A stretch of DNA of 64,000 nucleotides. Source: Cyclobacteriaceae bacterium. Its GTDB lineage: Bacteria > Bacteroidota > Bacteroidia > Cytophagales > Cyclobacteriaceae. The stretch lies in NCBI GenBank assembly GCA_035492075.1, contig DATJJP010000030.1:4076-68075 (forward strand), in the 5' to 3' direction. Under the pieces are notes generated by a model. That model did not search any database. It saw only the letters and a list, made by a program, of their open reading frames with translations, and was not told the DNA's origin. Positions within the stretch are counted from its first letter, which is position 1. Every line of letters starts with the position of its first letter. The translations under genes were made by a program, and so were the position numbers. Positions 39,152-48,553 of the stretch are shown here, piece after piece.

Positions 39152-39925
39152 TCAGCCCTTAATATCCTTTACAAATTTGTGTATTCCGTCGCCTAGGTTC
39201 TTGCTGGCCTTCAACATTTGAATGAAGGCGCTACCAACAATCGCACCTGACGCAAAACGACAGGCTACATCGAAAGCGGCTGCATTGGAGATACCGAAAC
39301 CGATGAGCCATGGGTTTTTCAGTTTCAGCAAACGAAGCTTTTCAAAGTACCCTATCTGTTCATTGGAAAACTCCCCTTTCGCACCTGTCGTGCTTGATGA
39401 CGAGACGGCATAAACAAATCCGCTGGATGCGTGGTCGATGTCTCGGATGCGCGACTCTGCCGTTGTGGGCGAAATCAAGAATATGGCTCGAAGATTCTTT
39501 TTCTCAAAAAAATGTCGGTATTCATTTTCGAATTCTGTCAGGGGAAGATCAGGAAGGATGACACCGTCAACGCCCGCTTTTGCCGCATCTGTGCAGAATT
39601 CCTCGACGCCATATTGAACAACCGGGTTCAAATAACCCATTAAAATGATCGGGAGTTTAACGTCCTTTCTTATTTCTGTCACTTGTTGCAACAGAAGTCT
39701 TACGTTCATCCCATTGTCGAGTGCAGTCTTATTGCTTTCTTGGATGACAGGTCCGTCGGCCACGGGGTCTGAAAAGGGGATTCCAATCTCGATCATGTCA
39801 GCCCCGGCACTTTCCAGTTCTTTGGCGACAAGGACAGTATCGTTCAACTTTGGAAATCCCGCCGTAAAAAATACGGAAAGAATATTTTGTTTTTTCCTCT
39901 TAAACAACTCGTCTATTCGATTCAT
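39152..39925 (-). CDS. trpA: tryptophan synthase alpha chain
   Basis: ADMIEIGIPFSDPVADGPVIQ and GFGIS motifs. Last gene of the trp operon. Confidence 0.95.
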   Translation of the reverse strand: MNRIDELFKRKKQNILSVFFTAGFPKLNDTVLVAKELESAGADMIEIGIPFSDPVADGPVIQESNKTALDNGMNVRLLLQQVTEIRKDVKLPIILMGYLNPVVQYGVEEFCTDAAKAGVDGVILPDLPLTEFENEYRHFFEKKNLRAIFLISPTTAESRIRDIDHASSGFVYAVSSSSTTGAKGEFSNEQIGYFEKLRLLKLKNPWLIGFGISNAAAFDVACRFASGAIVGSAFIQMLKASKNLGDGIHKFVKDIKG

Positions 39926-39994
39926 ATTGATGTTTTAATTCTGCGATATGTTGATTGCGTGTTGAGGTCATCCGTACATTAAGGAAACTGCCAA

Positions 39995-41176
39995 TCAGTA
40001 CTTCCCCCACTTGATATACGTTTCGAGATCTTTGTCGCCTCTTCCCGAAAGGTTTACTACGACGATGTCTTCTTCATTCAACTCGAGTTTGGCGAGCGCG
40101 GCCACGGCATGGGCGCTCTCTATGGCGGGAATGATCCCCTCTAGGCGGCTCAGTTCAATGCCCGCATGCATGGCTTCCTCGTCAGTCGCATTTAAAAACT
40201 GTACACGGCCTGTATCAAACAAATGCGAATGCAGTGGACCAATACCGGGATAATCCAATCCAGCCGAAATAGAATAAGGCTCGATCACTTGTCCATCCGC
40301 CGTTTGCATGAGTAGTGATTTGCTTCCATGAAGTATGCCAATTCGGCCAAGCACGGTCGTCGCCGCAGATTCATTGGTGTCAACTCCTTTACCGGCTGCT
40401 TCCACCCCGATTAAATTGACATGTTCGCTTTCCAGGAAATGGTAAAAAGCACCGGCGGCGTTACTTCCACCTCCAACACAGGCAATCACATAATCGGGAA
40501 ATGGGTTTCCGTTTTCAAGTGTCAGCTGACTTTTTATCTCTTCACTGATGACCGATTGAAATCGTGCGACCATATCGGGGTAAGGATGCGGACCCACGAC
40601 CGACCCAATAATATAGTGTGTATCTGTGGGGTTATTAATCCAGTGGCGCATCGCTTCGTTTGTAGCATCTTTTAAAGTCATGTTTCCCGAAGTTGCCGGG
40701 ATCACTTTTGCGCCTAAAATTCGCATCCGCTCCACGTTGGGTCTCTGGCGGTCCATATCCAATTTTCCCATGTAGACAACACATTCCATCCCCATCAGCG
40801 CGCATACCGTTGCAGTAGCCACGCCATGTTGACCGGCACCCGTTTCAGCAATTATTTTTTGTTTGCCCAGCCTTTTGGCCAATAAAATTTGACCTATCGT
40901 GTTGTTGATTTTGTGCGCCCCCGTGTGGCACAAGTCTTCTCTTTTCAAATAAATCTTCGCCTTGAATTTGTTCGAAAGGCGGTTGGCCGCAAACAACGGG
41001 GTCGGTCGCCCCACGTAGTTGCGGAGCAGATCATCAAACTCTTTTATGAACTCTGCCGACCGGATGATGCTCAAATAATTTTGACGCAGCTCTTCCACAT
41101 TTGGGTAGAGCATTTCTGGAATGAACGCGCCGCCAAACTTGCCGTAGTACCCGCGCTCGTCAACAGTATATTTCAT
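39995..41176 (-). CDS. trpB: tryptophan synthase beta chain
   Basis: [14 protein letters not shown]-lysine context [16 protein letters not shown], and GGGSNAAG. Confidence 0.97.
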
Positions 41177-41805
41177 GAGGAATAATTTAGTATTTGTAAC
41201 ATCGAACTCAGCACGATTGGGTCTTTCTTTCCTGGTGACGTCTCTGCGCCGCTATTGATATCCAAAGCGAAAAACTTTGCATGTTTTATAGACATTGCTT
41301 GGCTGAAATTCTCGGTGTTGATACCTCCGCTTAGAAAAAATGGAGTTGATCCGTTATAGCCATTTAATAGACTCCAATCGAAACTTTTTCCCGACCCACC
41401 ATACGCGGTCGTTTTGGCATCGAACAGAAAATAATCGGCTGCGTCTTTAAAATCTTTCGTTTGGCGGAAATCAAAATCATTGTCAACCCGAAAAACTTTT
41501 ATCACTTTGATTTTTTTTCTCAATGCCGCACAGAAATGAACGGCCTCATCACCGTGCAGTTGCACAAAATCCAGTTGATGCATCCGCACTAATTCTAAAA
41601 CGCGATCAAGGTTTTCATTAACAAAAACCCCTACCTTCTTAATGTAGCGCGGGAAACCTTTCGGTATTGTAAAATTAGTTCCCACGAATCGGTTTGATTG
41701 ATCATAGAAAATAAAACCCATAAAATCGGGTTGCACCGCAGCAACATCCAAGATATTCGTCGCGTCGCGCATACCACAAACTTTGAGTCTCCGTTTTTCC
41801 ATCAC
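41173..41805 (-). CDS. trpF: phosphoribosylanthranilate isomerase
   Basis: KVCGM...DFMGFIFY...VQLHGDE pattern. ATGA overlap with trpB. Confidence 0.92.
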
Positions 41806-42605
41806 AACAATTCAATAAATTCCTTTGCCGCAAGTTCCGGTCGGTCATGTTTCATAAAATTCTCTCCCATCAAAAATCCTTCGTAGCCAAATTTCCTAAG
41901 TTCTACAACAGCTTCAGGGTAGGCAATTCCGCTTTCGGAAATTTTTATGAATTCGTTCGGGATCAGAGTGGATAGCTCCCTCGATAATCCGAGATTTACT
42001 TCAAATGTTTTCAAGTCGCGGTTGTTGACGCCAACAAGATCGATATTTGAAGACAAGTTCGCCTCTAGTTCCGGAGCTGAATGCACTTCGAGCAACACCT
42101 CTAGATGAAGTGAGCGTGCAAACTTGGCGAGCGTCTGTAATTTCTCTGGAGACAAGCCAGCTGCGATCAGCAGAATTACGTCAGCGCCGATCGACTTGGC
42201 CTCGACCACTTGATACTCGTCAACAATAAAATCCTTTCGGAGGATGGGGCATTGGTTCACGGATCGTGCGCCGATCAAATCAACGTTGCTTCCGCCAAAA
42301 AAATCCTTGTCGGTCAGAACAGACAGGGCCGTGGCCCCCGCAACTACGTATCCTTTTGTCGTTTGAAGCACGTCAGCGTCAGCGTTGATGACTCCCTTAG
42401 AGGGTGATTGCCTCTTAAACTCTGCAATGATTCCCGATCGACTATTTTCCTTGAGTGCCCGCTTCAGAGAAATCACTTGTCTTGAAAAGAAAATACTCTG
42501 TTCCAATAGTTTGACTGGGTAGAGATTTTTTCTTTCTGCTACCTCTTTTTTCTTGTGATGGATGATTTGCTCAAGAATGTCCATTATAAAAATTTCAATG
42601 TTCAA
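41802..42605 (-). CDS. trpC: indole-3-glycerol phosphate synthase
   Basis: IAEFKRQSPSKG, ILRKDFIVDEYQ, LEVH and VGVNNRDL motifs. The start may be MDILEQ (42584). Confidence 0.95.
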   Translation of the reverse strand: MNIEIFIMDILEQIIHHKKKEVAERKNLYPVKLLEQSIFFSRQVISLKRALKENSRSGIIAEFKRQSPSKGVINADADVLQTTKGYVVAGATALSVLTDKDFFGGSNVDLIGARSVNQCPILRKDFIVDEYQVVEAKSIGADVILLIAAGLSPEKLQTLAKFARSLHLEVLLEVHSAPELEANLSSNIDLVGVNNRDLKTFEVNLGLSRELSTLIPNEFIKISESGIAYPEAVVELRKFGYEGFLMGENFMKHDRPELAAKEFIELL

Positions 42606-43584
42606 TCAATCTTTTAAAAGCGGTATATGCCTTTCCCGACTGCAAAGCGTCTTTTGCTTTTCCCAGTGCGTTACCTAAGCCTTCCTTTTGATTTGCACAA
42701 TAAAGGGCCATACCTGCGTTTGCTACCACTACTGCATTTTGCTGTGCAGAACCATTTCCTTTTAGTACCTCAATGAAAATCTTTGCGGACTCGTCCATGG
42801 TACTCCCGCCGGCTAGGTCTGATGGACTAAGCTGCGGCAAGCCCAGTGAAGGGGCTGAACACATTTCTTCACCCCCATTATAAAAATATTTGAAAGGGCT
42901 CGTGAGTGAAATCTCGTCGTACCCCCCCAGGGAATGCAAAATCAGAAACTCCTTTTCCGTTTGCTGATATAGATACCCGTATTGTCGTGCCAATTCCAAG
43001 GAAAATACACCCACCAGTTGACGTTTTGGGAAAGCGGGATTTACCATCGGACCGAGCATATTAAAAAATGTCTTCACTCCTAGTTCTTTTCGAATCGGTG
43101 CTACGTTTTTCATAGCGGGGTGAAAAAGTGGCGCGTGCATAAAACAAATATTGGCCCGCTCAATGCACCGCTTCAACTCCTCCTTGTCGTTGGTGAATTT
43201 ATAACCGAAATACTCGAGAATGTTTGATGATCCTGACAAAGAGGACACGCCATAGTTTCCGTGCTTTGCCACTGGCTGTCCTGCGGCTGCCACTACGAAT
43301 GACGAGAGTGTCGAGATATTGAACGTGTTTTTTGCGTCACCGCCTGTTCCACATACATCCATAACGGGTTCGTCAAATTTCACGGCAATGCAGAGCTCAA
43401 GCATGGCATCACGAAAGCCGGCCAGTTCGTCAACGGTAATGCCGCGCATCATGTAAACCGTCATGAACGCCGACGTCTGACTTGCATTGAATTTCCCCGA
43501 AGCCAGATCGATCAGTACTTCACGCGCTTTTTCCTTTGACAAAGCTTTGTGTTCAATTAATTCTGTTAATACCTCTTTCATCAT
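42595..43584 (-). CDS. trpD: anthranilate phosphoribosyltransferase
   Basis: DVCGTGGDAKNTFNIST and KHGNYGVSSLSGSSN motifs. Confidence 0.95.
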   Translation of the reverse strand: MMKEVLTELIEHKALSKEKAREVLIDLASGKFNASQTSAFMTVYMMRGITVDELAGFRDAMLELCIAVKFDEPVMDVCGTGGDAKNTFNISTLSSFVVAAAGQPVAKHGNYGVSSLSGSSNILEYFGYKFTNDKEELKRCIERANICFMHAPLFHPAMKNVAPIRKELGVKTFFNMLGPMVNPAFPKRQLVGVFSLELARQYGYLYQQTEKEFLILHSLGGYDEISLTSPFKYFYNGGEEMCSAPSLGLPQLSPSDLAGGSTMDESAKIFIEVLKGNGSAQQNAVVVANAGMALYCANQKEGLGNALGKAKDALQSGKAYTAFKRLIEH

Positions 43585-43612
43585 TTTTCAATTCAACGTT
43601 CAACATTTCGAA

Positions 43613-44179
43613 TCAACTTCGCAACCAGTTTTCGATCATCTTCGGTCCTTCCGGGGTCATAACAGATTCGGGGTGGAACTGAAGTCCTTTGACATCATAT
43701 TTTACATGGCGGATCGCCATAACTAATCCCTCTTCATTGGTAGAAGTGACCTTCAGGTCAGAGGGTATACTCTCAGGCAATACCGCCCATGAGTGATAAT
43801 GAGTGGATTGAAATTCACCTGGCACGCTATTGAAAATGATTTCAGAGCGGTCTATGACCAACGATTTCGAGGTCACACCATGTAACACATCGGGAATGTT
43901 GTACAACTTTGCCCCGAACACTTCCGCTATCCCCTGATGACCAAGACAAATACCCAGAATGCTTTTTGATGGCGAATATGTTTTTACGACTTGCTTCATG
44001 ATACCTGCTTCATCAGGGATACCGGGTCCCGGCGACAGCAAGATCTTGTCATAGTTTTTAACTTGATCCAAATCTATCTTATCATTCCTAAAAATATCGG
44101 GTTGATGACCCAACGCCCGAAGGATGTGGACGAGATTGTAAGTAAACGAATCGTAATTATCGAGCACTAGAATTTTCAT
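43613..44179 (-). CDS. trpG: anthranilate synthase component II (glutamine amidotransferase)
   Basis: MKILVLDNYDSFTYNL, catalytic GICLGHQ, and LQFHPES. Start placed at the conserved MKILVLDNYDSF. Confidence 0.95.
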   Translation of the reverse strand: MKILVLDNYDSFTYNLVHILRALGHQPDIFRNDKIDLDQVKNYDKILLSPGPGIPDEAGIMKQVVKTYSPSKSILGICLGHQGIAEVFGAKLYNIPDVLHGVTSKSLVIDRSEIIFNSVPGEFQSTHYHSWAVLPESIPSDLKVTSTNEEGLVMAIRHVKYDVKGLQFHPESVMTPEGPKMIENWLRS

Positions 44180-44210
44180 TTTCAAATCTTTAATCTTCAA
44201 ATTTTCAATC

Positions 44211-45602
44211 TTAAATCGTTTCAGCGGCCCGAATCGCCTTCCGTAATGCTTCCAGCTTATTGTTCACCTCTTGCAGTTCTTTTTCCTTTTCCGATTTCGA
44301 GACAATGCCTGCGCCCGCTTGGTAAATCAACTGGTTGCCTTTGCTCAAAAAAGTCCTGATCATGATCGCTTTGTTCAATGAACCATCGAATCCGATTCCG
44401 CCAATCGCTCCGCCATAATACGTTCTGTTCACATTTTCATACTTACTGATCAAGTTCATCGCCATCACCTTAGGGGCACCTGACAACGTGCCTGCCGGAA
44501 AAGTATCTGCGAACATTTGAACAGTGGACGACTTTTCAGCGAGTTGCCCAGATACTTTCGATACCAAATGAATTACGTGAGAATAATATTGAATCTCCTT
44601 GAAAACCTCCACGGTCACCTGCGCCGCATTTCTGCTCATATCATTCCGCGCCAGGTCGACCAACATCACGTGCTCGGCATTTTCTTTTTCATCAGCGCAC
44701 AGGCGTTCAGCGGTTGCCGCGTCTTCTTGATCGTTACCACTTCTTCTAAACGTGCCCGCAATTGGGTAGATAAATGCTTGCCCATTTTTTACTTGCAGTT
44801 GGGCCTCTGGGGATGAGCCGAAAAGTTTGAAGCTCCCATAATCAAAGTAAAATAAATAAGGAGACGGGTTGATCGATCGAAGGGAACGGTACACATTAAA
44901 CTCATCCCCTTTAAATGATTTTGAAAATCTTCGTGACAGCACCATCTGGAAAACATCTCCGCGAAAGCAGTGTTGTTTTGCCTTTTCCACGGACTCCATG
45001 AACTCTTCGTCGGTGACATTGGATGTTTCAGTATCACTTGCCTGAAATTTGAAGGTAGAAAAACGGTTGCTGAAAATAATTTGTTCCACTTTATCCAATG
45101 TGCTAACGGGGCTTCCAAACCCAAACTCATGCAGTTTCAGTTCATTAAAAAAATGGTCAACGACGATCACGTAGCGATAAAGTTTGTAAATCATGTCAGG
45201 AATTGTTGACGATGAGTTGATCTGGACGTCCTCGAAATAGCGGACGGCGTCGTACGTAGTATAACCAAACAAGCCCAGTGATTTCAGCTTGGAGTCATCG
45301 TCAACAATGAATGCGTTTTTAAAGTCATCAAACAGCGTTACGAGATTGGTTTTGCCTGCGTGAATTTCAAGTTCGCTCCTCTTCCCATCGGGAAACTGGA
45401 TGTTCACCTTTCCTTCGTGAACCTCAAACGAGGCGATTGGATCACAACAAATGAGAGACAAACTGTTCTCTCGACCGTGATAATCGGAGCTTTCCAGTAA
45501 AATGCTCCCGGCGAAAATATCGCGGACTTTAAGGTAGATGTTCACGGGAGTGAGTGTATCGGCCAATAGTTTCTTATAGTGTGTGTCAAGTCTGTATTTC
45601 AT
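44211..45602 (-). CDS. trpE: anthranilate synthase component I
   Basis: LLESS...; chorismate-binding C-terminus PAGTLSGAPKVMAM and YGGAIG. Confidence 0.96.
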   Translation of the reverse strand: MKYRLDTHYKKLLADTLTPVNIYLKVRDIFAGSILLESSDYHGRENSLSLICCDPIASFEVHEGKVNIQFPDGKRSELEIHAGKTNLVTLFDDFKNAFIVDDDSKLKSLGLFGYTTYDAVRYFEDVQINSSSTIPDMIYKLYRYVIVVDHFFNELKLHEFGFGSPVSTLDKVEQIIFSNRFSTFKFQASDTETSNVTDEEFMESVEKAKQHCFRGDVFQMVLSRRFSKSFKGDEFNVYRSLRSINPSPYLFYFDYGSFKLFGSSPEAQLQVKNGQAFIYPIAGTFRRSGNDQEDAATAERLCADEKENAEHVMLVDLARNDMSRNAAQVTVEVFKEIQYYSHVIHLVSKVSGQLAEKSSTVQMFADTFPAGTLSGAPKVMAMNLISKYENVNRTYYGGAIGGIGFDGSLNKAIMIRTFLSKGNQLIYQAGAGIVSKSEKEKELQEVNNKLEALRKAIRAAETI

Positions 45603-45620
45603 GCGAATTCGAAATTTTGG

Positions 45621-45657
45621 TAAAACAAAAAGCCCGCTCGATTTGATCGGGCGGGCT
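45621..45657 (-). terminator. trp attenuator terminator (3:4 hairpin plus U-run)
   Basis: Minus strand reads AGCCCGCCCGAU-caa-AUCGAGCGGGCU (12-bp stem, one C-A mismatch), then UUUUUGUUUU. It ends 18 nt before the trpE ATG. Confidence 0.8.
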
Positions 45658-45683
45658 TTCTCGTTTGAGAATTATTTGTTCTT

Positions 45684-45758
45684 TCAACAAAGCACAGCAC
45701 TGCACCGATCAGTTTTTGATCTGTGCCACCACCATGCGCTGTTTGAAAATTGATTCAT
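45684..45758 (-). CDS. trpL: trp operon leader peptide MNQFSNSAWWWHRSKTDRCSAVLC
   Basis: 24-codon ORF with three consecutive UGG codons (45726-45734), located between the bTHX stop and the attenuator hairpin. Absent from the ORF track because it is under 60 aa. Confidence 0.75.
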   Translation of the reverse strand: MNQFSNSAWWWHRSKTDRCSAVLC

Positions 45759-45760
45759 GT

Positions 45761-45940
45761 TTAGTCTTCTTTCTTCTTTGTTACTTTACGCGCTTTGGGC
45801 TTTGCATCACCCGCTGCTTTAACCGTTTTTTTGCTCGCTGTTCTCTTCAGTCTTGCCTTGATGGCTTTGCGGTTTCTTGAGTTGCCATAAGAGCCCTTTG
45901 AGCGCTTCCCTTTTGTCGATTTTTTGTCTCCTCTTCCCAT
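45761..45940 (-). CDS. 30S ribosomal protein bTHX
   Basis: 59-aa highly basic ORF MGRGDKKSTKGKRSKGSYGNSRNRK... The N-terminus matches the MGKGDxKxxKGK..GSYG pattern of Thx proteins of Thermus and Bacteroidota. Absent from the ORF track, which instead lists a spurious antisense ORF at 45665-45880. Confidence 0.8.
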   Translation of the reverse strand: MGRGDKKSTKGKRSKGSYGNSRNRKAIKARLKRTASKKTVKAAGDAKPKARKVTKKKED

Positions 45941-46002
45941 TAAATGTGAAAATTATGTCGCAAGTATAAGGATGATTTTCGGAGATACAAAAATCGTTTC
46001 AA

Positions 46003-47142
46003 CTATTTTTTGCTAACAACCGCTCGCAAACAAAGCACACCGACGATGGCGGAAATGAGTGAACCAGTGAGTACGGCAACCTTTGAACTGTGTATGAGCT
46101 CCTCATCACCGAACGCCAGCAGTGCTATAAAAATTGACATGGTGAAGCCAATGCCTGCGAGAGTTCCCACGGCAAAAATGTGTTTGAGCTTCAAGGTGTG
46201 GGGCAACACACACCATCCCGCCTTTAGCCCAAGCCAGGAAAACAAAAGTATACCAACGGGCTTCCCCAGTACAAGGCCGATAATTATTCCCAAACTGTTG
46301 CGCGCGGTCTCTTCCGAAAATGTAGTGTGTTGGAACTGTACAGCCGTGTTGGCCAGCGCAAACAGCGGCAGAATGACGAACGTAACAGGCCAGTGAAGCC
46401 GATGCTGTAAGAGAGTAGAAGGTGAGGCCTCATTGCCCGATTTGAAGGGTATGGTAAACGCCAATAAAACGCCTGTAATCGTCGGATGAACTCCCGAACG
46501 TTGCATGCAAAACCACATGACACAACCCGGCAGCACATAAACCCAAAGCGACTGCACAGCTGATCGGTTGAGCGCAATCAGCAGCACGAAAATCCCCAAG
46601 GCAAAACCCAAGTACATCCATGAAATGTCGGAGGAATAGAAAATGGCGATCAGAAGAATGGCTCCGAGGTCGTCGATAATGGCGAGGGCGGTCAGGAATA
46701 TCTTCAGTGAAAGTGGCACGCGGTTGCCGAGCAAAGACAAGACTCCCAGAGAAAATGCAATGTCTGTGGCCATGGGTATTCCGTAGCCGCTTTGCGATGC
46801 AATTCCGTGGTTGAACGCGAAATGAATAGCCGCAGGCGCAAGCATTCCTCCGACAGCAGCCAACATGGGAAGCAACGCACTTTTGATGTGTTTGAGCTCA
46901 CCCACGTAAACCTCCCTTTCAATCTCCAGGCCGACTTGCAAAAAGAAAATGGTCATCAGGCCATCATTAACCCAAAATTCAATTGGCTTTGAGAATAATT
47001 TAAGGTGCCAGAAATGTGAATAGGTGCCATCAAACATGACATTTGCCAAAACCAATGACAGAACCGTGCAACACGCGAGAATGATGCCTCCCGATTTCTC
47101 GCTGTCCAAAAATGCCAGTGAGTGCCGCGCCCAAGTTTTCAT
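46003..47142 (-). CDS. nhaA: Na+/H+ antiporter NhaA
   Basis: FLDSEKSGGIIL N-terminus, LAIIDDLGAILLIA (the DD pair), and 12 TM helices. Start placed at MKTWARHS. Confidence 0.93.
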   Translation of the reverse strand: MKTWARHSLAFLDSEKSGGIILACCTVLSLVLANVMFDGTYSHFWHLKLFSKPIEFWVNDGLMTIFFLQVGLEIEREVYVGELKHIKSALLPMLAAVGGMLAPAAIHFAFNHGIASQSGYGIPMATDIAFSLGVLSLLGNRVPLSLKIFLTALAIIDDLGAILLIAIFYSSDISWMYLGFALGIFVLLIALNRSAVQSLWVYVLPGCVMWFCMQRSGVHPTITGVLLAFTIPFKSGNEASPSTLLQHRLHWPVTFVILPLFALANTAVQFQHTTFSEETARNSLGIIIGLVLGKPVGILLFSWLGLKAGWCVLPHTLKLKHIFAVGTLAGIGFTMSIFIALLAFGDEELIHSSKVAVLTGSLISAIVGVLCLRAVVSKK

Positions 47143-47242
47143 CGAATGATGTTTCTGTTCCAAACGACAAATAACGAGCAACTGCTTTGAGGAAAGAAAA
47201 ATATTTGAGACAATTGTAATCAAGTTCCTCTCCAATCCTGTG

Positions 47243-48553
47243 ATGAAAGAAATCTTTTCCGCCCTTTTCGTTCTCTTTCTCTTTACGAATTCCTTTTCTC
47301 AGTTCAAGAACATAAAATTGGCCGAGCAAACAGACGACTCCTATCCGCCCGTCGAGCCGTCCATTGCCATCAATAAACTTAACCCAAATAATATTGTCGC
47401 AGGAATTGTGCTCAACCGAGTGGTGGTCAGCAATGATGGGGGCCAAACGTGGAAATCCACTGAGTTAACGTCACCGTTTGGAGTGTATGGTGACCCGGCC
47501 GTGATTTCAAACTCCAAGGGGAACTTGTTTTATTTTCATTTGGCCGACCCGAGCGGCAAGGGCCGTGGCAATGATTCTTGGCTTGACCGAATTGTATGCC
47601 ACACGTCATTGGATCAAGGGGCCACATGGAATAGTGGTGTTTCCATTGGAAACAATCCTCCCACCGATCAAGACAAAGCATGGCCTGCCGTTCACCCCAA
47701 GAAAAATGAAGTCGTCGTCACATGGACACAGTTTGACACTTACGGAAGTAAGGAAGAAGGTTGTCAGTCCAATATTCAGTTCAGCAGGTCGGGTGGCGGC
47801 AGCCGTTTCTCGAAAGCGGTTCAGGTCAATGAGATCCCCGGCGACTGCCTTGATGACGACAATACGGCGATGGGTGCCATGGCCGCCATTGGCAACGACG
47901 GGAAAATCTACGTGACCTGGGCCAATAAGGGAGCTATCTACATGGATCGTTCCTATGACGACGGAAGTACCTGGCTGTCCAGCGACATCGTCGTGACCAA
48001 GCAACTTGCGGGATGGAATCTTTCGGTCGACGGAATTCAACGCAGCAACGGGCTTCCCGTATTAGCCATTGACAACAGTCCGAGCAGGTTCCAAGGCACG
48101 CTGCATCTCCTGTGGGCAGACCAAACCAATGGACCTGACGACACGGATATTTGGATGATTAATTCACGTTCACGAGGGGACCTTTGGTCAAAGCCGTTGC
48201 GGGTGAATAAGGACGAAACCGGGACCCACCAGTTTCTCCCATGGATGACGGTAGATCAAACCAATGGCAATGTTTATGTGGTTTATTACGATCGCAGAAA
48301 TAGCAGCGACCTTCAGACCGATCTTTATCTGGCCTACTCTTTTGATGGAGGAAACAATTTCAGCGAAGTAAAAATAAGCGAGACCCCATTCACACCCGAC
48401 GCCACCAAATTTTTTGGCGATTACACCAACATCGATGCACACGCCGGTATCATCACTCCCATTTGGACTCGGATGGACAATGGAAAAACAAGCGTATGGA
48501 CGGCGATCATTAAAGAAAGTGATTTGCCGAAGCCTGCCCCAGTAAAAAAGTAA
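47243..48553 (+). CDS. secreted BNR/sialidase-fold (exo-alpha-sialidase-like) protein
   Basis: Signal peptide and four Asp-boxes (SNDGGQTW, SLDQGATW, SYDDGSTW, SFDGGNNF). Confidence 0.8.
   Translation: MKEIFSALFVLFLFTNSFSQFKNIKLAEQTDDSYPPVEPSIAINKLNPNNIVAGIVLNRVVVSNDGGQTWKSTELTSPFGVYGDPAVISNSKGNLFYFHLADPSGKGRGNDSWLDRIVCHTSLDQGATWNSGVSIGNNPPTDQDKAWPAVHPKKNEVVVTWTQFDTYGSKEEGCQSNIQFSRSGGGSRFSKAVQVNEIPGDCLDDDNTAMGAMAAIGNDGKIYVTWANKGAIYMDRSYDDGSTWLSSDIVVTKQLAGWNLSVDGIQRSNGLPVLAIDNSPSRFQGTLHLLWADQTNGPDDTDIWMINSRSRGDLWSKPLRVNKDETGTHQFLPWMTVDQTNGNVYVVYYDRRNSSDLQTDLYLAYSFDGGNNFSEVKISETPFTPDATKFFGDYTNIDAHAGIITPIWTRMDNGKTSVWTAIIKESDLPKPAPVKK

Follow-up and report, generated by a model that had tools for sequence, protein, structure and literature searches.

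In the model worked out by Yanofsky for trpL of Escherichia coli, the leader contains tandem Trp codons, its RNA can adopt mutually exclusive 1:2, 2:3, and 3:4 pairings, and a terminator lies in front of trpE. The antiterminator of that leader is weaker than its terminator, so that the decision between the two is kinetic. In Bacteroidota, Weinberg et al. described in 2010 the RNA element RF01692 (Bacteroid-trp); the accessible part of that paper (PMC2864571) presents it as a presumed peptide leader that senses low tryptophan, speaks of "a loosely conserved hairpin", and draws no antiterminator model. A transcriptome study of Flavobacterium also reported "strong clues" for leader-peptide attenuation before amino-acid operons (PMC9723704). 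We describe herein a minus-strand element in a 64-kb stretch of DNA from a Cyclobacteriaceae bacterium (the whole stretch analyzed is referred to as the window), which lies between the gene for the ribosomal protein bTHX and trpE. A first-pass annotation, made from the letters alone, took this element for a ribosome-mediated trp attenuator. That reading is supported by a Trp-rich leader open reading frame (ORF), a terminator, mutually exclusive pairings, the presence of the same element at 140 of 161 loci, and the recognition of orthologous sites in Flavobacteriaceae as RF01692. With a probability of roughly 85%, the element is a ribosome-mediated attenuator of trpEGDCFBA, a divergent Cytophagales relative of RF01692 that sits inside the bTHX transcription unit. 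Attenuators of this type have been known for Bacteroidetes since 2010, as a prediction only, and the window holds a divergent relative that falls below the curated threshold.

The window and Bacteroid-trp share their general layout. Both lie upstream of trpE in Bacteroidota and consist of a short ORF in which successive UGG codons stand directly before a His codon (CAY), a hairpin whose 5' arm carries the UGG run, and a terminator behind it. RF01692 could be aligned at full length (model positions 1-131) to positions 45781-45650, with the UGG run and CAY in register and the UGG run opposite UGGuGGUGg of the consensus. At the orthologous site, directly upstream of the trpE orthologue, the RF01692 threshold was passed by eight of 20 loci (L029, L030, L043, L056, L061, L071, L074, and L078), all of them Flavobacteriaceae, with 51.6-71.8 bits. 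No Cytophagales locus scanned, including 15 metagenome relatives, reached this threshold. Scans of THX-linked loci (those with bTHX next to the leader) in E-value mode yielded nothing for RF01692 at E <= 10, and the curated threshold of no Rfam family was reached anywhere in the window. The window differs from Bacteroid-trp in its pairing, its ORF, and its promoter. It uses GAUCGG:CCGAUC and has no counterpart of the GUGA(stop):UCAC(loop) pairing of subtype A (described below) and of L029, L043, and L061, the three RF01692-passing loci in which this logic was inspected. It lacks a stop after the D-R codons and thus has 24 codons rather than ~18, and its leader, joined to the bTHX cistron, lacks a separate promoter.

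With E. coli trpL, the window has in common the Trp codons, four segments with exclusive pairings, a terminator before trpE, and an antiterminator weaker than the terminator. There is nonetheless no sequence or structure homology between the two (RF00513, Trp_leader, stays below threshold). The window has three Trp codons rather than two, 24 codons rather than 14, and no Shine-Dalgarno sequence, and its leader follows another cistron, whereas that of E. coli follows a promoter and an operator. Absence of a Shine-Dalgarno sequence is usual in Bacteroidota, according to the available text of PMC6847099. A further parallel comes from mycobacteria, where leaderless polycysteine short ORFs were described, in the accessible portion of the report, as Cys-responsive attenuators (bioRxiv 10.1101/834739). 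Like those ORFs, as far as that portion describes them, the leader of the window is enriched in one amino acid, precedes the genes of a biosynthetic operon, and has no Shine-Dalgarno sequence. Relatives not linked to bTHX would be nearly leaderless, as are the mycobacterial ORFs, whereas the window copy is an internal cistron and not leaderless.

Leader ORF and terminator

The leader ORF occupies 45684..45758 on the minus strand and encodes MNQFSNSAWWWHRSKTDRCSAVLC in 24 codons, followed by the stop UGA (45686-45684). It was listed mechanically as an ATG ORF of 24 amino acids and agrees exactly with the ORF first read at 45758->45684. The sensor would be three consecutive Trp codons, UGG UGG UGG (45726..45734, minus strand). 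TGGTGGTGG occurs once in the window, both strands counted. The first-pass annotation held three such codons in a 24-codon ORF just upstream of trpE to be very unlikely by chance. A single run somewhere in the window would not be rare, since 0.36 occurrences are expected and at least one was found in 30 of 100 shuffles. What chance does not account for is the in-frame location of the run in a mini-ORF 132 nt ahead of trpE, together with its conservation among relatives.

Loci for comparison were fetched by TrpE, 80 from species-representative genomes and 80 from metagenomes, with TrpE identities of 55-85%. The closest matches were metagenome-assembled Cytophagales (Chryseolinea, Ohtaekwangia, and "Cyclobacteriaceae"), with a maximum of 85% for locus L081. 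A W-run mini-ORF, a GC-rich hairpin, and a U-run precede trpE at 140 of the 161 related Bacteroidota loci, and the element is thus by no means absent from orthologous trpE leaders. The mini-ORF and terminator also precede trpE in 102 loci without an upstream bTHX gene. In the 140 loci, the start codon, the frame, the in-frame UGG run, and the stop are kept, and the remaining codons drift. Moreover, the W-run begins eight codons past the ATG in 107 of 137 loci, despite variable N-terminal residues. The constant distance between ATG and W-run, together with the kept frame, points to a leader ORF that is under selection for translation.

Downstream of the leader, an intrinsic terminator hairpin (3:4) was recognized from its fold energy and from relatives (45628..45660, minus strand). 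Its core is GCCCGCCCGAU-CAA-AUCGAGCGGGC, and A:U pairs lengthen the stem out to 45660/45628. The predicted fold has an energy of -20.3 kcal/mol (z = -5.3), and none of 200 shuffles was equally stable. The hairpin had been taken to have 12 bp. Its arms, 45657-45646 and 45642-45631, were placed correctly, but the stem consists of 11 pairs and one C.A mismatch (C45650/A45638). A simple terminator scan overlooked the hairpin because of this internal mismatch. The U-run that follows, as read from the sequence, is UUUUUGUUUU (45622..45631, minus strand). Its extent and its distance to trpE had to be corrected: U45631 was counted in both the stem and the run, the last base of the run is 45622, and the spacer between the run and the trpE ATG (45602) is 19 nt, not 18.

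The alternative structures are formed by segments of the same strand. The 1:2 hairpin (45742-45687), which encloses the UGG run, has a predicted energy of -23.4 kcal/mol (z = -2.7). Its 5' arm, segment 1 (45717..45742), contains the UGG codons and CAC-AGAUCA, and its 3' arm, segment 2 (45687..45711), contains the antiterminator strand, the segment 2 core UGAUCGGUGCAGUGCU (45711-45696). Segment 3 (45643..45659), which comprises the terminator 5' arm and loop AAAGCCCGCCCGAUCAA, can take either segment 2 or segment 4 as its partner. The region 45603-45790 as a whole is strongly structured (z = -4.2). Among 15 relatives, the upper stem of the 1:2 hairpin is 80% paired, and the lower stem of the terminator is 98% paired, with double-sided changes at three pairs. 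When these two stems are taken together as the terminator state, 87.9% of the cells are paired, as opposed to 30-45% in slid controls, and the covariation score (0.261 vs 0.152) was matched by none of 500 shuffles. The 26-nt spacer between the leader stop and the terminator holds a small hairpin, UUCUC-AAAC-GAGAA (45658..45671, minus strand), which is present in every predicted conformer of the window and has a counterpart only in L081.

Some individual features of these leaders deserve separate mention. The UGG run of the window (45734-45726) is partly complementary to 45656-45646 in the C-rich 5' arm of the terminator, and the same is seen in L001, L008, L010, L012, and L081; this 1:3 pairing, predicted in folds with a ribosome at the stop codon, may be either an effect of base composition or a fourth alternative structure. 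L022 contains a tandem pair of complete attenuators before trpE (2580-2945), the first with a promoter box, MRNNTINNAWWWHFPN, and a terminator, and the second with MKNRMNKNWWWHFTKLRD and a different terminator. Two terminator-like hairpins are found in L099. L008 and L088 have ~195-200 nt extra between the attenuator terminator and trpE, compared with 25-65 nt elsewhere; these inserts are GC-rich, contain palindromes (e.g., cccttctcccgtgggagaagg in L008 and cctctccgaagcggagaggg in L088), and look like small repeat elements.

Predicted antiterminator and proposed switch

The pairings originally proposed for the switch, 45725-45718 with 45710-45703 and 45711-45705 with 45650-45644, have the right coordinates throughout. 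The 2:3 helix, however, is not limited to the 7 bp then drawn, and extends over 12-13 pairs along the whole terminator 5' arm and loop: UGAUCGG (45711-45705) pairs with CCGAUCA (45650-45644), followed by GC:GC, G:C, and GCU:AGC. The helix was examined in folds of the nascent RNA, in which the ribosome masks up to 13 nt past the A-site UGG and the RNA has been made only as far as the terminator loop. Without a ribosome, segment 3 of the window makes no upstream pairs and the 1:2 hairpin forms; with a ribosome at the first or third UGG, segment 3 makes 12 upstream pairs. The stalled nascent RNA has an energy of -22.7 kcal/mol (z = -4.2), a stability equalled in none of 200 shuffles.

This behavior is not confined to the window. 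In each of the 35 close relatives, the stalled, shortened fold contains the 2:3 antiterminator. For a set of 137 loci, 10.2 pairs are made between segment 3 and upstream sequence, compared with 6.2 when that sequence is shuffled, and at least seven such pairs are found in 96% of these loci vs 28% after shuffling. The 2:3 duplex of the window has an energy of -16.6 kcal/mol, as opposed to -6.0 +/- 3.2 kcal/mol with segment 2 of other terminator classes, and it is stronger than with every one of these (shuffle fraction 0.006). When the cognate duplex was tested with a fixed segment-2 window, z was -2.8 for the class of the window and ~+0.2 to +0.6 for the Flavobacteriaceae classes.

The close clade of 35 loci can be divided into two subtypes, 20 loci being type A and 15 type B (the window and 14 others). 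In type A, the ORF ends with ...D-M/L/W-stop, the stop UGA lies within segment 2 UGUGAACAGCC, and the terminator is GAAGGCCYGCUG-UUCA-CAGYRGGCCUUC, whose arm and loop are complementary to segment 2. In type B, segment 2 is GAUCGG-N-GC..GGCU and the terminator begins AGCCCGCYCCGAUC..., so that segment 2 repeats the 3' arm of the terminator imperfectly. The ORF stops at GAUCGG-UGA in L012, L088, and L097, three type-B loci with the 18-codon form. At the codon that is UGA in these three, the window has the sense codon UGC (45704-45702); most other type-B loci likewise have UGC or another sense codon there, and their ORF reaches the base of the hairpin with 23-24 codons. Apart from this codon, the sequence that follows is much the same in both forms. 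To judge from these leaders, the length of the type-B ORF past the D-R codons seems free to vary. Each segment 2 matches its own terminator best: with segment 3 of type B, the mean duplex energy is -15.7 kcal/mol for segment 2 of type B and -7.3 kcal/mol for that of type A, and with segment 3 of type A, it is -13.3 kcal/mol for segment 2 of type A and -11.7 kcal/mol for that of type B.

Types A and B are intermixed on the TrpE neighbour-joining tree. Within type B, an anchored table shows a compensatory change from GAUCGG:CCGAUC to GAAUCGG:CCGAUUC in L009, L054, and L092. At the sixth position of the core helix, 12 type-B loci have G:C and these three have A:U; at the seventh, the window and L081 have U:A and these three have G:C. 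On the TrpE tree, the sister of L092 is L016, in which GAUCGG is retained, and L009 and L054 are placed elsewhere; these scattered positions indicate that the GAAUCGG change arose more than once. Moreover, CCGAUC is kept in L016, L081, L082, L088, and L092 even within the terminator loop, where the terminator has no need of it. In alignment A2 (15 sequences, spacer deleted), 85% of the cells of the 2:3 helix are paired vs 17-47% in slid controls, a value that slightly understates the pairing because CCGAUC is misplaced in L081, L082, L016, and L088. A MAFFT alignment of the whole leader (A1), in which the terminators of the window and L081 were displaced by one column, was dropped for pair counts. 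At the level of these sequences, the 2:3 helix is well supported by conserved complementarity and modestly by covariation.

A sequence of events can be proposed from these structures. Transcription would begin at the bTHX promoter, near 45956, and ribosomes that finish bTHX, or fresh ones recruited through the A-rich context, would start on the leader 2 nt past the bTHX stop. If charged tRNA-Trp is plentiful, the ribosome would pass the UGG run and run on to the stop codon at the foot of the 1:2 hairpin. With segment 2 then covered or re-paired with segment 1, segment 3 would stay free; the 3:4 terminator would form, and the polymerase would halt at the U-run to give a short bTHX-leader transcript. 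If tRNA-Trp is scarce, the ribosome would stall on the UGG codons and mask CAC-AGAUCA of segment 1. The freed segment 2 (UGAUCGG-U-GC-A-G-U-GCU) would pair with the emerging AGC-C-GC-CCGAUCA before the 3' arm of the terminator is made, and the polymerase would continue into trpE.

Several results weigh against this scheme or against the assignment on which it builds. The window scores 30.9 bits with RF01692 (E = 0.98), where the gathering threshold is 49, and 23.3 bits with RF00513 (E = 0.15, threshold 41), a match that stems from the UGG run and the terminator. Covariation in the 2:3 helix is modest, with three double-changed pairs and a score (0.144 vs 0.119) reached by 16 of 500 shuffles; most of its pairs are invariant, and the helix was derived from the same sequences. 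Folding with the UGG region held single-stranded, a check suggested in the first-pass annotation, produced no flip, and the full-length RNA keeps the terminator as its minimum-energy fold under a stall in all 15 type-B leaders. With a ribosome at the stop, the minimum-energy folds pair segment 3 with upstream sequence in 13 of 15 type-B and 16 of 20 type-A leaders, and in these models thermodynamics alone fails to give the "off" state. In the window, moreover, the 24-codon ORF leaves GAUCGG uncovered when the ribosome is at the stop.

The antiterminator is ~6 kcal/mol weaker than the terminator state (-22.7 vs -28.8 kcal/mol). Since the terminator wins at equilibrium, the switch, if these fold models are right, must work by kinetic trapping, as in the classical model. 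The upstream pairing found with a ribosome at the stop often joins the UGG run, which is rich in G, to the C-rich segment 3 on the other side of the ribosome; we regard such pairing as sterically unlikely. In leaders with a long ORF, the modeled "off" state relies on local re-pairing of CAC-AGAUCA with UGAUC-GGUG behind the ribosome.

The same results could be accommodated by an attenuator that is wired otherwise than 1:2/2:3/3:4, for instance through pairing of the UGG run with the C-rich arm, Rho-type polarity caused by uncoupling, or a pause hairpin. Equilibrium folds that retain the terminator under a stall, 1:3-type pairings in the at-stop folds of many relatives, and the modest 2:3 covariation would all be compatible with such wiring, as would the words of the RF01692 authors, who in the accessible text (PMC2864571) spoke just of a loosely conserved hairpin. 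We nevertheless consider it improbable. The 2:3 helix is the minimum-energy fold of the stalled nascent RNA in every one of the 35 close relatives; two subtypes with unrelated terminators each have a matching segment 2 (-15.7 vs -7.3 kcal/mol); and both the compensatory GAAUCGG:CCGAUUC changes and the retention of CCGAUC in terminator loops with no need of it argue for the 1:2/2:3/3:4 arrangement.

Sensing that is independent of translation, by a TRAP-like protein, by uncharged tRNA as in a T-box, or by a small molecule, with the mini-ORF being incidental, would also be in keeping with the strong structure of 45603-45790. This seems very unlikely, given that no T-box or riboswitch family of Rfam was found at E <= 1 in 44000-47500 and that one GAG and no UAG occur between the UGG run and the terminator, which means that there is no TRAP-type repeat array. 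It also leaves unexplained the retention of ATG, frame, UGG run, and stop in 140 loci and the fixed spacing of ~8 codons.

The trp operon and the bTHX cistron

The gene right behind the element is trpE, as first annotated. It encodes anthranilate synthase component I (44211..45602, minus strand; Pfam Chorismate_bind 2.7e-77, Anth_synt_I_N 2.9e-24) and is the first gene of the operon. It is followed on the same strand by trpG, trpD, trpC, trpF, trpB, and trpA, which form contiguous or overlapping ORFs (39152..44200) and were identified by the Pfam domains GATase, Glycos_transf_3, IGPS, PRAI, PALP, and Trp_syntA, respectively. On the other side of the leader, separated from its ATG by only 2 nt, lies the gene for the 30S ribosomal protein bTHX (45761..45940, minus strand), a protein of 59 amino acids with a Lys-rich C-terminal tail that matches NCBIfam TIGR04560 ribo_THX (E = 2.6e-10, 40.1 bits vs a cut-off of 26). 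Farther upstream is nhaA (47235-46003, minus strand), with a spacer of 62 nt (45941-46002) between its stop (46003) and the bTHX ATG. A terminator scan of this spacer gave no terminator-like hairpin, and transcription may read through from nhaA into bTHX and the leader.

Each of the 35 loci of the close clade has its bTHX gene immediately before the leader. The distance from the bTHX stop to the leader ATG ranges from -4 to +20 nt in these loci, with a median of 3, and includes ATGA and TAATG overlaps. Readthrough or frameshifting from bTHX into the leader was ruled out, as both the gap and the frame relation differ among loci. Adjacency of bTHX and leader was listed for the window, L001-L016, L018, L044, L045, L054, L081-L097, and L145.

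A putative promoter that would serve bTHX, the leader, and the trp operon lies within the nhaA-bTHX spacer. It consists of a -7 box, TATACTTG (45961..45968, minus strand), which fits the sigma-A consensus of Bacteroidota, TAnnTTTG, with a single mismatch, and a candidate -33-like TTTG read from the sequence 19 nt upstream of it (45988..45991, minus strand). A box of the Bacteroidota type, mostly TATACTTG or TATTATTG, is found 24-37 nt before the bTHX ATG in 35 of 35 THX-linked loci, and a TTTG at a similar site is visible by eye, unscored, in most of the 35 upstream sequences. In Flavobacterium the -7 box spans -12 to -5 relative to the start site (PMC9723704), which would place the start of transcription in the window near 45956. 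An exact TAnnTTTG in the 60 nt that precede the leader ATG occurs in none of the 35 THX-linked loci, as opposed to 93 of 102 loci without an upstream bTHX, and the window has no promoter box between the terminator and trpE. A sigma-70 promoter scan was set aside as not meaningful for Bacteroidota. The trp operon is thus probably transcribed here from the bTHX promoter, and the simplest reading of the locus is that the terminator of the attenuator would also end the bTHX transcript. That the hairpin, although the first and sole terminator between bTHX and trpE, is merely the terminator of bTHX, with a chance WWW ORF and trp controlled elsewhere, is extremely unlikely in view of the same mini-ORF and terminator at trpE in 102 loci without upstream bTHX, the single occurrence of TGGTGGTGG in the window, and the missing promoter box before trpE.

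Other loci show different arrangements. In loci without bTHX, mostly Flavobacteriaceae, the box most often starts at -13 from the leader ATG (28 loci, e.g., L029, L030, and L032). With the spacing known from Flavobacterium, the leader mRNA of such loci would start ~1 nt before the AUG, and the trp leader peptide of Flavobacteriaceae-type loci would be nearly leaderless. In L028 and L098 (Roseivirgaceae-like), a bTHX homologue neighbours the leader. That of L028 has ~200 amino acids with a long Ala/Lys/Thr-rich tail and ends ~41 nt before the leader, with a TATATTTA box in the gap. Judged by this layout, L028 and L098 seem to stand between the fused loci and those whose leader has its own promoter.

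In Bacteroidota, A residues upstream of a start codon are probably the ones that favor initiation, and the codons of the Lys-rich tail of bTHX (AAG AAG AAA GAA...) provide an A-rich context upstream of the leader ATG. The identity of upstream nucleotides was reported to tune initiation in this phylum, which lacks Shine-Dalgarno sequences (PMC6847099, accessible part). In the literature searched, there was no link between bTHX and trp and no leader coupled to an upstream cistron; a reverse case, with coupling from a leader to the structural gene, is described in PMC4833913. We tentatively suggest, with somewhat more doubt than confidence, that the attenuator of this Cytophagales lineage lost its own promoter and became the second cistron of the bTHX transcript, and that ribosomes finishing bTHX restart on the leader. 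If so, restarting after bTHX would secure the coupling between ribosome and polymerase that attenuation needs, without a Shine-Dalgarno sequence. Initiation of trp transcription would then be slaved to the expression of a ribosomal protein, and the specificity for Trp would come wholly from the attenuator, which would serve as the terminator of bTHX as well.

Predicted attenuation in Bacteroidota

The element is not a new kind of system; what is unusual is its position behind a ribosomal-protein cistron without a promoter of its own. Predictions of leader-peptide attenuation in Bacteroidota date back to 2010, and we found no dissection of it in the literature searched. This locus and its 35 close relatives provide a testable four-segment model with specific bases, in which segment 2 and the terminator co-evolved as a module, giving two subtypes with unrelated terminators. 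For annotation, it matters that this whole clade is missed by the Rfam threshold. Three arrangements of the leader can now be compared: the nearly leaderless form predicted for Flavobacteriaceae, the Algoriphagus-type form with its own promoter, and the form of this lineage, downstream of a ribosomal-protein gene. This three-way comparison bears on how ribosomes may be loaded fast enough for attenuation without Shine-Dalgarno pairing.

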